Part shown: piece after piece, positions 297 through 44,439 of the stretch
How the letters are laid out: every line of letters begins with the position of its first letter
Numbering within the stretch: the stretch's first letter is position 1
Assembly: GCF_003334355.1 (NCBI RefSeq)
Contig: NZ_QOWP01000022.1
DNA from: Escherichia coli
GTDB lineage: Bacteria; Pseudomonadota; Gammaproteobacteria; Enterobacterales; Enterobacteriaceae
Strand: one strand, 5' to 3'
Length of the DNA: 64,000 bases
The notes under the pieces: model-generated
The model's database searches: none
What the model was told of the DNA's origin: nothing
Seen by the model: only the letters and a program-made list of their open reading frames with translations
Made by a program: the position numbers and the translations under genes

Positions 297-869
297 TTAT
301 GCCGGTTTTTGCTGCTTTTTTATCGCTTGCGGCAGGTCTGCCAGGCTATTTAACACCCAATCCGCCGCGTTTTCTGCTTCAGGCGTAATAGGTTTACCCG
401 TACGCACCAGCACTTTTGTTCCCACGTTCGCCGCAGCCGCTGCCTGCATATCTTCTAATTTATCGCCCACCATATAAGAAGCGGCCATATCAATATGCAA
501 ATAATCGCGTGCTGACAAAAGCATCCCCGGATGTGGTTTACGGCAGTCGCAGACCTGGCGAAACTCTTCAACACTACCCTGCGGATGATGCGGGCAATAA
601 TAGATACCATCCAGATCGACATCTCGGTCCGCCAGCGACCAGTCCATCCACTCGGTCAGCGTTTCAAACTGTGCTTCGGTAAATTTACCGCGAGCAATGC
701 CAGACTGGTTGGTTACTACCACCAGCGCAAAGCCCATTTTTTTTAGCTCGCGCATGGCGTCAATAACACCGTCGATAAATTCAAAGTTGTCGATCTCATG
801 GACATAGCCGTGATCGACATTAATGGTGCCATCACGGTCAAGAAAAATTGCGGGTACGCTCTTTGCCAC
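297..869 (-). CDS. gmhB: D,D-heptose 1,7-bisphosphate phosphatase (HAD superfamily)
   Basis: ORF track, 190 aa; HAD motif FLDRDGTIN near the N-terminus; sits between rrnH and metN as in K-12. Confidence 0.93.
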
Positions 870-958
870 CTTTTATAGCTCCTTAATAAGGCATGTGACG
901 CTAGTATCGCATGTTTCGACCTGCAAGAAAGTGCTCTTCGCATAAACCTGATTGATTT

Positions 959-990
959 AGACGTCTGGATGCCTTAACATCCATTTCATT
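959..990. promoter_or_regulatory. MetJ operator: tandem 8-bp met boxes upstream of metN
   Basis: Seen in sequence: AGACGTCT GGATGCCT TAACATCC ATTTCATT, four contiguous 8-mers with the first a perfect metbox, about 70-100 bp upstream of the metN start. Confidence 0.55.
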
Positions 991-1056: not shown

Positions 1057-2088
1057 ATGATAAAACTTTCGAATATCACCAAAGTGTTCCACCAGGGCAC
1101 CCGCACCATCCAGGCGTTGAACAACGTCAGCCTGCATGTGCCAGCTGGACAAATTTATGGCGTTATCGGTGCCTCAGGCGCGGGTAAGAGTACGCTTATA
1201 CGTTGTGTAAACCTGCTGGAGCGCCCAACCGAGGGTAGCGTGCTGGTCGATGGCCAGGAACTGACCACGCTGTCAGAATCCGAGTTGACCAAAGCTCGCC
1301 GCCAGATTGGTATGATTTTCCAGCATTTTAACCTGCTCTCTTCGCGTACTGTTTTTGGCAACGTGGCTCTGCCGCTGGAGCTGGACAACACACCGAAAGA
1401 CGAGATCAAACGTCGCGTGACGGAATTGCTGTCATTGGTTGGTCTTGGCGATAAGCATGATAGCTACCCATCGAATCTTTCCGGTGGGCAGAAACAGCGT
1501 GTGGCGATTGCCCGTGCGTTAGCCAGCAATCCCAAAGTATTGCTGTGTGATGAAGCCACCAGCGCGCTGGACCCGGCAACGACACGTTCTATTCTCGAGC
1601 TGCTGAAAGACATTAACCGCCGTCTGGGTTTGACGATTCTGTTGATCACCCACGAAATGGACGTTGTAAAGCGTATTTGTGATTGCGTGGCGGTCATCAG
1701 CAATGGCGAACTGATTGAGCAGGACACGGTAAGTGAAGTGTTTTCGCATCCGAAAACGCCGTTGGCGCAGAAGTTTATTCAGTCGACCCTGCATCTGGAT
1801 ATCCCGGAAGATTACCAGGAACGTCTGCAAGCGGAGCCATTCACTGACTGCGTGCCGATGCTGCGTCTGGAGTTTACCGGTCAGTCGGTCGATGCCCCAC
1901 TGCTTTCTGAAACCGCGCGTCGTTTCAACGTCAACAACAACATTATTAGCGCGCAGATGGACTACGCCGGTGGCGTTAAGTTCGGCATCATGCTGACTGA
2001 AATGCACGGCACACAACAAGATACGCAAGCCGCCATTGCCTGGCTGCAGGAACACCATGTAAAAGTAGAGGTACTGGGTTATGTCTGA
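1057..2088 (+). CDS. metN: D-methionine ABC transporter ATP-binding protein
   Basis: ORF track, 343 aa; Walker [13 protein letters not shown] signature LSGGQKQR, Walker [12 protein letters not shown]; C-terminal regulatory domain. Confidence 0.96.
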
Positions 2089-2734
2089 GCCGATGATGTG
2101 GCTGCTGGTTCGTGGCGTATGGGAAACGCTGGCAATGACCTTCGTATCCGGTTTTTTTGGCTTTGTGATTGGTCTGCCGGTTGGCGTTCTGCTTTATGTC
2201 ACGCGTCCGGGGCAAATTATTGCTAACGCGAAGCTGTATCGTACCGTTTCTGCAATTGTGAACATTTTCCGTTCCATCCCGTTCATTATCTTGCTGGTAT
2301 GGATGATTCCGTTTACCCGAGTTATTGTCGGTACATCGATTGGTTTGCAGGCAGCGATTGTTCCGTTAACCGTTGGCGCAGCGCCGTTTATTGCCCGTAT
2401 GGTCGAGAACGCTCTTCTGGAGATCCCAACCGGGTTAATTGAAGCTTCCCGCGCAATGGGTGCCACGCCAATGCAGATCGTCCGTAAAGTGCTGTTACCG
2501 GAAGCGTTGCCGGGTCTGGTGAATGCGGCAACTATCACCCTGATTACCCTAGTCGGTTATTCCGCGATGGGTGGTGCAGTCGGTGCCGGTGGTTTAGGTC
2601 AGATTGGCTATCAGTATGGCTACATCGGCTACAACGCGACGGTGATGAATACGGTACTGGTATTGCTGGTCATTCTGGTTTATTTAATTCAGTTCGCAGG
2701 CGACCGCATCGTCCGGGCTGTCACTCGCAAGTAA
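2081..2734 (+). CDS. metI: D-methionine ABC transporter permease
   Basis: ORF track, 217 aa; hydrophobic multi-TM protein; 8-nt overlap with the metN stop suggests translational coupling. Confidence 0.95.
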
Positions 2735-2773
2735 CGTTCAACACAACATAAATAATTGAAGAAGGAATAAGGT

Positions 2774-3589
2774 ATGGCGTTCAAATTCAAAACCTTTGCG
2801 GCAGTGGGAGCCCTGATTGGATCACTGGCACTGGTAGGCTGCGGTCAGGATGAAAAAGATCCAAACCACATTAAAGTCGGCGTGATTGTTGGTGCCGAAC
2901 AGCAGGTTGCAGAAGTCGCGCAGAAAGTTGCGAAAGACAAATATGGCCTGGACGTTGAGCTGGTAACCTTCAACGACTATGTTCTGCCAAACGAAGCATT
3001 GAGCAAAGGCGATATCGACGCCAACGCCTTCCAGCATAAACCGTACCTTGATCAGCAACTGAAAGATCGTGGCTACAAACTGGTCGCAGTAGGCAACACT
3101 TTTGTTTATCCGATTGCTGGTTACTCCAAGAAAATCAAATCACTGGATGAACTGCAGGATGGTTCGCAGGTTGCCGTGCCAAACGACCCAACTAACCTTG
3201 GTCGTTCACTGCTGCTGCTGCAAAAAGTGGGCTTGATCAAACTGAAAGATGGCGTTGGCCTGCTGCCGACCGTTCTTGATGTTGTTGAGAACCCCAAAAA
3301 TCTGAAAATTGTTGAACTGGAAGCACCGCAACTGCCGCGTTCTCTGGACGACGCGCAAATCGCTCTGGCAGTTATCAATACCACCTATGCCAGCCAGATT
3401 GGCCTGACTCCGGCGAAAGACGGTATCTTTGTTGAAGATAAAGAGTCCCCGTACGTAAACCTGATCGTGACGCGTGAAGATAACAAAGACGCCGAGAACG
3501 TGAAGAAATTCGTCCAGGCTTATCAGTCTGACGAAGTTTACGAAGCAGCAAACAAAGTGTTTAACGGCGGAGCTGTTAAAGGCTGGTAA
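2774..3589 (+). CDS. metQ: D-methionine-binding lipoprotein (NlpA family)
   Basis: ORF track, 271 aa; signal peptide with lipobox LALVGC; third gene of the metNIQ operon. Confidence 0.95.
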   Translation: MAFKFKTFAAVGALIGSLALVGCGQDEKDPNHIKVGVIVGAEQQVAEVAQKVAKDKYGLDVELVTFNDYVLPNEALSKGDIDANAFQHKPYLDQQLKDRGYKLVAVGNTFVYPIAGYSKKIKSLDELQDGSQVAVPNDPTNLGRSLLLLQKVGLIKLKDGVGLLPTVLDVVENPKNLKIVELEAPQLPRSLDDAQIALAVINTTYASQIGLTPAKDGIFVEDKESPYVNLIVTREDNKDAENVKKFVQAYQSDEVYEAANKVFNGGAVKGW

Positions 3590-41367: not shown

Positions 41368-42792
41368 TTACTGCATTAACAGGTAGATGGTGCTGTCGCC
41401 GCGCTGAATGTTGAGTGCCAGCACAGACGGTTTGCTGTCGAGAACTTTACGCAGTTCAGCGATGTTTTTCACTGCCTGCTGGTTCGCGCCAATAATCACA
41501 TCACCTTTCTTCAGGCCGATCTGCGCAGCCGGAGTGCCCGTTTTCACGTTGTTCACTACCACGCCCTGATCTTTGCCTTTGTTGCTCATCTCAGCGCCTT
41601 CAATGCCGTTGAAGATGGAGCTGGAATCAACCTGATTCTGGCTGCTCTGCTGCAGTTCCAGGTTCACGTTAACCTGCTTACCGTCGCGCAGTAAGCCCAG
41701 GGTCAGTTTGCTGCCTACCGGCATAGTACCCACCTGAGCACGCAGTGCGGCAAAGCTGCTGATCGGCTTACCGTTCAGTGAGGTGATCACATCACCCGCT
41801 TTAATGCCCGCTTTTGCAGCGGAGGAATTAGGCAGAACCTGGCTTACGAAAGCACCGCGCTGGGCGTCAACTTTCATCGCTTTCGCCAGTTCGGAGTTCA
41901 GCTCAGTCCCCATAATACCCAGCTCACCGCGTTTCACCTGGCCGTATTCCACCATCTGCGAGGTCAGGTTTTTCACCATGTTACTCGGGATAGCAAAACC
42001 GATACCGATGTTGCCGCCGTCCGGTGCGAGGATCGCGGTGTTGATACCGATCAGTTCGCCGTTCAGGTTAACCAGCGCACCACCGGAGTTACCACGGTTG
42101 ATCGCTGCATCGGTCTGGATGAAGTTTTCGTAGTTTTCGGCATTCAGGCCGCTACGCCCCAGCGCAGAGACAATCCCGGAAGTTACCGTCTCGCCCAGAC
42201 CAAACGGGTTACCAATCGCTACGGTGTAATCACCCACGCGCAGTGCATCAGAATCCGCCATCTTAATTGCGGTCAGGTTTTTCGGGTTCTGGATTTGGAT
42301 CAGCGCGATATCAGAGCGCGGATCTTTGCCAACCATCTTCGCGTCGAACTTACGGCCATCGCTCAGTTGAACTTTAATGACCGTCGCGTTATCAACAACG
42401 TGGTTGTTGGTGACGACATAGCCTTTATCGGCATCAATGATGACGCCGGAACCCAGCGCCATGAATTTCTGTTGCTGGCCGCCACCATTACCGCCCTGGC
42501 CACCCTGGCAGAACGGAGAGCTCTGGAACGGAGAACCTTCCTGGCAGAACGGAGAATCATCACCGAAGAACTGCTGGAAATTACGCGGCATACGCGGCGT
42601 ATTAACGGTTGTGCTACCTTCTACGTTAATGCTGACCACTGAAGGCATCACCTTTTCGAGCATCGGTGCAAGGCTTGGCATCTGCTGGGCTGTCGTTGCT
42701 GAAGAAGTCTCAGCCGCCGTTGCAGAGAGCGGAGATAACGCCAAACCTAAACTCAGAGCCAGTGCACTCAGTGCTAATGTGGTTTTTTTCAT
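41368..42792 (-). CDS. degP: Periplasmic serine endoprotease/chaperone DegP (HtrA)
   Basis: ORF track, 474 aa; signal peptide; catalytic Ser motif GNSGGAL; two PDZ domains. Confidence 0.97.
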   Translation of the reverse strand: MKKTTLALSALALSLGLALSPLSATAAETSSATTAQQMPSLAPMLEKVMPSVVSINVEGSTTVNTPRMPRNFQQFFGDDSPFCQEGSPFQSSPFCQGGQGGNGGGQQQKFMALGSGVIIDADKGYVVTNNHVVDNATVIKVQLSDGRKFDAKMVGKDPRSDIALIQIQNPKNLTAIKMADSDALRVGDYTVAIGNPFGLGETVTSGIVSALGRSGLNAENYENFIQTDAAINRGNSGGALVNLNGELIGINTAILAPDGGNIGIGFAIPSNMVKNLTSQMVEYGQVKRGELGIMGTELNSELAKAMKVDAQRGAFVSQVLPNSSAAKAGIKAGDVITSLNGKPISSFAALRAQVGTMPVGSKLTLGLLRDGKQVNVNLELQQSSQNQVDSSSIFNGIEGAEMSNKGKDQGVVVNNVKTGTPAAQIGLKKGDVIIGANQQAVKNIAELRKVLDSKPSVLALNIQRGDSTIYLLMQ

Positions 42793-42838
42793 GTATTTCA
42801 GTCTCGATTAACAGATAACGCAAAATTGCTGTGTTCTT

Positions 42839-42921: not shown

Positions 42922-44439
42922 TTATTGTTCTACGGCCATCAGACGTCGGTATTCATCCCACGCATAGAGGTCGGTCATACCGCTGATATAATCCTGCAGC
43001 AGGCGGCAACGGTAATAATATTCCCATAGCGGAAACTCAGGAGAATCTGACGGTAATTTACTGACAGCCTCGACATAGGCCAGCCGATGGCGCGTCGAGA
43101 GTTTGTGGAATAAGCGCGATTCAATAGGGAAACGTTTCACCCGTTCTTTTTCTACCAGTTCAGTAAAGTCTGATAACGACAGGCTTAATAAAGGACGATA
43201 AATCTCTAATAATCCGCTAATGACCCGATAGCCCTGCAATTCAAGCTGCTCGACATCTGGATGGCTAAACACATGTTTTACAGCGACATTTTTATATAGC
43301 TTAAGAAGATCGCTGCATTCGCTGGCATCTTCCAATAATGCATGATTAAACGTTCCGGCGAAAATCGCAGGCAGATTATCAATAAATCGTTGTGCCGCGT
43401 AGGGTACCAGTTTATTTAGGGTGTTTACTCGTAAATACATAAAAAACTGATCTTCCGTACTGCGACTTAAACTATTTGAGCGTGATTTTTCCCAGGCATT
43501 TTCAACCACTAGCGAAAAGAGCGAACCTTTCTCATGCTGGCCCCACGCTTCGTGCAAATGATGATAAAGCTGCTCAACGGTAAATATTCTTTTCTCTACC
43601 GCATCTTCAAGGTCTGCCACACAATAGGAGATGTCGTCGGCAGCTTCCATAATCCACGTTAATGGAAAACGACTGTAAAGCGCCAAATTAAGTTCTTTAC
43701 GCAACCGCGCAATATAGGCTTCTTCAGAAAGATAATAACCCGGCTTTTTCATTAAATAGTGATGTGTCTCAGGCGTTTCGCCACGCCACCACGCCGGACG
43801 GGTATATTTTAAAATACCGCCAACCTGTGCCCAGGTGAGATTCATCCGCATCAATGTATGCACCAGACGAATGCCTTGTGCATTCCCCTCAAAATGACAT
43901 AAGTCCTGACGAATCTTGCGCCGCAGCTCGTTAAGCGGTTCTTCCCCGTCCCGTAAACGTAGTGCCGCCACGCTGCAGCGATCGTCAGTCAGAGGCTGGC
44001 TTTCGGCATCTTCCGGGTGCAAACGTTGGCGAAACCAGTCATTTATCGCTGCTTCGCCAAAATGACCAAACGGCGGATTGCCGATATCGTGCATCAGGCA
44101 TGACATCTCAACAATGCTTTCAAAGGGGCCGGTCAGTTCATCCAGGCCGTATGCTTCCAGCAATTTAAGCTCTTTCAGACGGCTTAAAATTTCTTTGGCG
44201 ATGTAGCGTCCCACCTGCTGGACTTCCATCGAGTGGGTAAGACGCGTGCGCACGGCGGCATTGCGCTCCAGTGGAAAAACCTGGGTCTTTTGTTGCAGAC
44301 GACGAATTGCCGGAGAGTTGATGATACGCCCGCGATCGCTCTCGAAGATCCGCAGGATCTCATGTTCGGTTTTAACGCCCTGCGGTGAACGGTAACGACG
44401 ATGCCAGTTTATTTTTTTTCGGAAATCAATCTGTGCCAT
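42922..44439 (-). CDS. dgt: dGTP triphosphohydrolase
   Basis: ORF track, 505 aa; HD-domain motif [10 protein letters not shown]. Confidence 0.96.

Follow-up and report, generated by a model that had tools for sequence, protein, structure and literature searches.

The window (the whole 64,000-nucleotide stretch of E. coli DNA analyzed here) carries the divergent genes gmhB and metN, placed by the open reading frame list together with the annotation, and between them lies an intergenic region of 187 bp (870-1056), which is where the original prediction had correctly located a set of tandem repeats. Downstream of metN follow metI and metQ, and the elements on which the analysis turns are these:

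297-869, minus strand, gmhB
952-957, plus strand, putative -35 hexamer TTGATT (TTGACT in 8 of 22 genera)
959-966, unstranded, metbox 1, AGACGTCT, 8 of 8 consensus matches, 12.58 bits, also in Table S1 of Augustus & Spicer
967-974, unstranded, metbox 2, GGATGCCT, 5 of 8 consensus matches, 4.22 bits
975-982, unstranded, metbox 3, TAACATCC, 4 of 8 consensus matches, 3.63 bits
975-980, plus strand, putative -10 hexamer TAACAT, within metbox 3 and 7-8 nt upstream of the published transcription start site
983-990, proposed fourth box, ATTTCATT, 2 of 8 consensus matches, -19.42 bits, not a metbox
987-988, plus strand, metNIQ transcription start site (222714 in MG1655 converts to window 988, or to 987 if the source table is 0-based), inside the proposed fourth box
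1057-2088, plus strand, metN
2081-2734, plus strand, metI (open reading frame and annotation)
2774-3589, plus strand, metQ (open reading frame and annotation)
1057-3589, plus strand, regulated operon metN-metI-metQ (open reading frames, annotation and a single transcript from the start at 222714)

MG1655 coordinates convert to the window by subtraction (window position = 223702 minus MG1655 position). Between 702 and 1202 a single base differs from MG1655, at 864 within gmhB, and the gmhB-metN intergenic region of the window equals that of MG1655 base for base. A 1951-base query over the region, annotated with gmhB, metN and metI, is matched in 5425 of 5426 complete E. coli genomes. The gmhB gene is one codon shorter here than in MG1655 (190 versus 191 amino acids); base 299 is A rather than G, which turns the final codon CAA (Gln) into TAA, with the original TGA directly after it (window 297-299). 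In 20 of 21 Enterobacterales draft genomes (L001-L020) the contig ends ~0.8-1.4 kb upstream of metN, just past gmhB, which is the pattern expected from assembly breaks at an adjacent rRNA operon. Going by the K-12 map, the rRNA operon rrnH presumably begins just beyond the left end of the window. Elsewhere in the window, the Rfam matches above gathering thresholds were the CssrA sRNA (32882-32991, minus strand, 136.6 bits), the t44 RNA (33830-33916, minus strand, 83.5 bits) and the HtrA 5' UTR thermometer (42787-42832, minus strand, 77 bits).

The repeats were scored with the published information-weight metbox matrix (Augustus & Spicer 2011, PMC3228920, Table 3), under whose rule each box must reach at least one-quarter of the consensus score (3.145 bits, a per-box threshold that its own authors call arbitrary) and the whole site at least the score of one consensus box (12.58 bits). 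Boxes 1-3 (959-982) form three in-register, contiguous 8-bp repeats without any spacer, each above the per-box threshold, and total 20.43 bits, a score that is not fully independent given that metNIQ was among the E. coli sites used to train the matrix in its first version (PMC3228920). Boxes 2 and 3 clear the per-box threshold narrowly. The original prediction had read four contiguous 8-mers here, the first of them perfect, and had named matrix scoring as the check, with no significant score beyond the first box as the outcome that would tell against it. The perfect first 8-mer is indeed present, and the scoring extends the site past it through boxes 2 and 3; the fourth 8-mer is where that reading fails.

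A perfect AGACGTCT occurs once in the 64-kb window (959-966) against 0.53 copies expected, and at least one copy was found in 45 of 100 shuffles; by itself the single octamer is unremarkable, and it is the tandem arrangement that is remarkable. Octamers above the per-box threshold make up 0.93% of the window, the probability of two further in-register passing boxes beside a perfect one is ~9e-5, and when the whole window was shuffled 1000 times with dinucleotides preserved, 0.2-0.3% of the shuffles contained a three-box site scoring 20.43 bits or more, which places the score above chance. Besides the metN site, the metbox rule picks out a single location in the window, 38190-38205 (AAACGTCC ATCTGTCT, two boxes, 13.97 bits), inside an open reading frame of 274 amino acids (37729-38553, plus strand). 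Chance alone predicts ~0.6 such sites in 64 kb and probably explains this second one.

The feature is a known one, the MetJ operator of metNIQ: control of these genes by MetJ has been described since 2002, and the 24-bp site has been catalogued since 2011. For K-12 b0199 (metN), Augustus & Spicer (2011, PMC3228920, Table S1) give agacgtctggatgccttaacatcc, a three-box site of 20.45 bits separated from the start codon by 74 bp, and this published site is exactly window 959-982 because 1057 - 982 - 1 = 74. The window site is the same as the K-12 operator in sequence, box count and gap, and nothing of substance differs between them. What the present analysis adds to the catalogued site is its placement relative to the -35, -10 and +1 elements and the explicit rejection of a fourth box. 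Scored with the same matrix, other E. coli operators in the Augustus & Spicer table are as follows:

metA operator, 4 boxes, 27.2 bits
metB/metJ operator, 4 boxes, 31.2 bits
metF operator, 4 boxes, 25.0 bits
mmuP operator, 4 boxes, 27.9 bits
metE/metR operator, 3 boxes, 21.1 bits (21.08)
metK operator, 3 boxes, 15.0 bits
metC operator, 2 boxes, 18.9 bits
ybdH/mtnE operator, 2 boxes, 21.9 bits

In this comparison with metA/metB and the others, also put forward as a check at the outset, metN falls mid-range (three boxes, 20.4 bits) and lies nearest to metE/metR, which it resembles in box number, in a near-equal total and in its degenerate GGAT/CATCC-type boxes. The metE/metR operator is, however, common to two divergent met genes and has MetR as a co-regulator, whereas the metN operator serves one operon. 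The operators of metA, metB/metJ, metF and mmuP share with metN the tandem head-to-tail 8-bp boxes close to where the regulated gene begins, but they are longer arrays with higher totals (25-31 bits), and metN, with one perfect and two just-above-threshold boxes, is nevertheless repressed equally tightly (ratio 0.05).

The position of the operator within the promoter follows from published start site data. SMRT-Cappable-seq (PMC6131387, supplementary file 4) reports one metNIQ transcript (b0199 b0198 b0197) starting at 222714 on the reverse strand, in a table that is likely 0-based because its gmhB start (222805) is 1 below the Cappable-seq value (222806). A conserved TTGAYT 17 bp upstream of TAACAT points to a -35/-10 pair that would start transcription near 987, and the placement of TTGATT and TAACAT is consistent with the published start at window 987/988. 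Among the 22 genera aligned, T952, T953, G954 and T957 of the -35 hexamer are invariant and A955 is kept in 21; in the -10 hexamer five of the six columns are invariant and A977 is kept in 21 of 22. Relative to the published start, the operator (959-982) therefore runs from about -29 to -6, filling the spacer and covering the -10 hexamer, which puts it 74 bp ahead of the metN ATG and within the promoter of a gene related to methionine. The 8-mer at 983-990 is the transcription start and not a repeat. With matches at 8 of 12 positions, TTGATT/TAACAT fell below the cut-off of the generic promoter scan (9 of 12) and was not called. The scan called instead ATGCCA-16-GATAAT (1020-1047), which we rejected as the main promoter: its start would fall ~3 nt before the ATG, and its location 38 bp downstream of the operator is at odds with both the 20-fold repression by MetJ and the mapped start site. 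Two extra reverse-strand starts, at 221367 and 221008 (window ~2335 and ~2694), give transcripts of metQ (b0197) only, which implies internal promoters within metI, and a read-through transcript extends from metNIQ into b0196 (rcsF) (SMRT-Cappable-seq, PMC6131387).

A structured or covarying RNA in the 70-nt metN leader of E. coli was considered and rejected: Rfam gave no match to this leader even at an E-value of 10, RNAalifold found no consensus structure across 18 genera, the two named leader hairpins showed no covariation (score of 0.104, equaled or exceeded by 381 of 500 shuffles, whose mean was 0.127), and the leader is not more stable than its own shuffles (z = +0.33). The leader does contain a strongly conserved motif, ATGCCACGGCTAAC (within 1020-1056), of which Yersinia, Erwinia and Hafnia still retain GCCACGG. 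The motif is followed, immediately ahead of the metN ATG, by an A/T-rich stretch, CGATAATAAATAA, that is likewise conserved; no recognizable Shine-Dalgarno sequence was seen in the metN start region. In Yersinia (L013, ~990-1020) and Hafnia (L018, ~889-920) the leader opens with a strong hairpin, CTTTGG...CCAAAG, with z of about -4 relative to shuffles, and then a T-run. The Yersinia/Hafnia hairpin resembles an intrinsic terminator or attenuator, which E. coli does not have.

Published regulatory data bear directly on the site. With the native 400-bp metN upstream region fused to lacZ, the repression ratio in the presence of MetJ is 0.05, which corresponds to 20-fold repression (Augustus & Spicer, PMC3228920). 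MetJ ChIP-exo in methionine-supplemented medium gives a peak, MetJ-3, at 222715 between gmhB and metNIQ, which is window 987 and 5 bp from box 3; the peak is a single coordinate that does not resolve individual boxes, and its intensity of 11 is the lowest in that table. The MetJ i-modulon, of 17 genes, includes metI, metN and metQ and leaves out gmhB. Deletion of metJ raises metN expression in Salmonella (log2 fold change of +4.27) and upregulates metNQI in E. coli. MetJ occupancy is thus established at the operator by the published ChIP-exo data, and MetJ-dependent repression by the published lacZ and metJ deletion data. The proposal that MetJ represses metNIQ through tandem metboxes is upheld by all of these together with the published operator and the i-modulon. 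The same ChIP-exo table places a second peak in the window, MetJ-2, a possible MetJ binding site, at 179560 (intensity 23, window ~44142), ~300 bp inside dgt (open reading frame 42922-44439, minus strand) and ~380 bp away from where mtn, a gene of methionine salvage, begins. The motif nearest to MetJ-2 is AGACGGCT TAAAATTT (44177-44192), which at 9.5 + 0.1 bits is below threshold and by its two-box sum ranks 6th among ~64,000 positions.

An alignment of 22 Enterobacterales genera shows a near-invariant, sharply bounded island at 952-982, with a drop to background at 983. Mean information content over the 22 genera, by segment, is:

940-951, upstream flank, 0.52 bits
952-957, TTGAYT, 1.80 bits
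959-966, box 1, 1.89 bits
967-974, box 2, 1.57 bits
975-982, box 3, 1.97 bits, the highest segment
983-990, proposed fourth box, 0.64 bits
991-998, downstream, 0.42 bits

Seven of the eight columns of box 1 are invariant among these genera, and box 3 is identical in 21 of 22, which makes TAACATCC more strongly conserved than the perfect box 1. This invariance could stem as much from the role of box 3 as the -10 element as from its contacts with MetJ. The box 2 variants of other genera are mostly nearer to the consensus (AGACGCCT, AGATGCCT, AGACACCT). Three divergent E. coli alleles carry changes at 934, 997, 1001, 1007 and 1019, and their sole change within the operator, G967A, shifts box 2 toward the consensus.

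We extended the comparison to 80 metN loci, one genome per species, scanning 300 bp upstream of each under the same metbox rule, for which the chance rate of ~0.6 sites per 64 kb amounts to roughly 0.003 per 300 bp. An in-register site, 61-103 bp before the start codon, is present at every one of the 21 Enterobacterales loci. Sites of 2-4 boxes were found in 15 of 17 loci from Vibrionaceae, Aeromonas, Psychromonas, Orbaceae, Pasteurellaceae and one unclassified gammaproteobacterial metagenome-assembled genome, the 300 bp upstream of metN in a Rodentibacter and a Salinivibrio being without one. None of the remaining 42 loci, from Bacteroidota, Oceanospirillales, Bacillota and a single alphaproteobacterium, has a site in the 300 bp upstream of metN. 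MetJ is confined to five gammaproteobacterial orders (Augustus & Spicer, PMC3228920), and on that distribution the site is kept in MetJ-bearing lineages and missing elsewhere. The Vibrionaceae metN operators (for example ATACGTTT AGACGTCT AGACGTAA AAATATCT) resemble that of E. coli in that weaker, A/T-rich boxes come after a AGACGTCT that is perfect or nearly so; they differ in having 3-4 boxes, 26-35 bits and an extra box upstream of the perfect one. At the matching octamer of E. coli (951-958, ATTGATTT) there is instead the -35 hexamer, and this octamer was rejected as a metbox at -9.93 bits. The MetN proteins of Pedobacter and Flavobacterium (Bacteroidota; L022, L037-L045) share 62-73% identity with E. 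coli MetN, which makes them as close to it as Vibrio MetN is, and their metN loci are without metboxes. Identity this unexpectedly high across phyla hints at horizontal transfer of metNIQ.

Given that the conserved island maps onto the -35, spacer and -10 region, and that the most conserved box holds the -10 hexamer, it might be supposed that the island is merely the sigma-70 promoter of metN and its likeness to metboxes incidental. This supposition is barely credible: promoter spacers are normally unconstrained, yet the spacer here holds a perfect AGACGTCT with seven of eight columns invariant, a three-box score of this size is rare by chance, MetJ occupies the region in vivo and represses it 20-fold, 3-4 metboxes are likewise present in the metN promoters of Vibrio, whose sequence is different, and metboxes are absent from lineages beyond the MetJ-bearing orders. 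A separate question is whether the operator has a fourth box, a point that the original prediction had left between three and four. A fourth MetJ dimer on 983-990 (ATTTCATT), held cooperatively by the dimer on box 3 in an array reaching over the transcription start, would accord with the cooperative binding of MetJ, with a published per-box threshold that is arbitrary by its authors' own account (PMC3228920), with metF, for which a review counts five metboxes and the matrix-based table four, so that footprinted arrays can exceed matrix calls, and with the ChIP-exo peak coordinate (window 987), which falls within 983-990. We nevertheless regard a four-box operator as very unlikely. The octamer has the most disfavored base at both of the symmetric position-3/6 sites (-7.70 bits each), including it takes the sum of the array down to 1.0 bit, its conservation is at background (0.64 bits versus 0.42-0.52 in the flanks) with a sequence that varies freely among genera, Augustus & Spicer list three boxes (PMC3228920), and the start site accounts for 983-990. 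The count therefore settles at three, the fourth 8-mer failing the matrix, lacking conservation and containing the start site.

The dyad and the divergent gene raise two further alternatives. The inverted repeat TGGATG-CCTTAA-CATCCA (966-983) could be read as an RNA hairpin or terminator, and a pattern scan does call it terminator-like, with a 6-pair stem and then TTTCATT; we give this reading next to no credence, since 966-983 lies upstream of the metN start and so outside the transcript of that promoter, the gene on its upstream side is transcribed divergently, the T tract is a weak one, Rfam has no match at 966-983 even at an E-value of 10, and two neighboring half-palindromic metboxes would be expected to produce such a dyad. 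The operator might also be shared, with MetJ repressing gmhB as well as metNIQ, as is the case for several MetJ operators common to divergent genes (metE/metR, metJ/metB and ybdH/mtnE, for example), and the ChIP-exo table does give gmhB as the adjacent plus-strand transcription unit. The gmhB start has been mapped to 222806 by Cappable-seq and 222805 by SMRT-Cappable-seq (PMC6131387), that is, window 896/897. The block at 903-911 (AGTATCGCA) is conserved across genera and on the minus strand reads TGcGATACT, an extended -10, so that window 896-911 looks like the gmhB promoter, back to back with that of metN and ~45 bp from it. The operator lies ~50 bp upstream of this -10 block and outside the gmhB core promoter, gmhB is absent from the MetJ i-modulon, and it has no role in methionine metabolism, all of which makes joint control of gmhB highly improbable.

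We therefore assign 959-982, with near certainty, as the MetJ operator of the metNIQ promoter, built of three contiguous 8-bp metboxes, AGACGTCT GGATGCCT TAACATCC. In the MetJ family, SAM-bound dimers bind one per box with cooperative dimer-dimer contacts, SAM acting as the co-repressor. On the metN operator the stoichiometry would be three MetJ dimers. With abundant methionine, and hence SAM, SAM-bound MetJ would occupy the boxes, one dimer each, and the bound array would keep RNA polymerase off the core promoter, such that the high-affinity methionine importer is not made; as SAM falls, MetJ would depart and transcription would proceed from window 987/988. As the operator covers the spacer and the -10 hexamer, we infer that the mode of repression is steric occlusion of RNA polymerase, and this placement would also account for repression as tight as 20-fold despite two weak boxes.

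Box 3 may, more tentatively, be a dual element that acts both as the -10 hexamer and as a MetJ box, in which case its apparent degeneracy would reflect not decay but a compromise, now fixed, between TATAAT and AGACGTCT, and by extension a fourth dimer might sit non-specifically over +1 through cooperativity alone; we hold this to be possible but doubtful, and a dual-purpose box 3 and a fourth dimer, if true, would be refinements of a known operator. Beyond correct annotation the importance of the finding is small: it settles the number of boxes at three, and a real operator recognized from sequence alone provides a positive control for this kind of reading.
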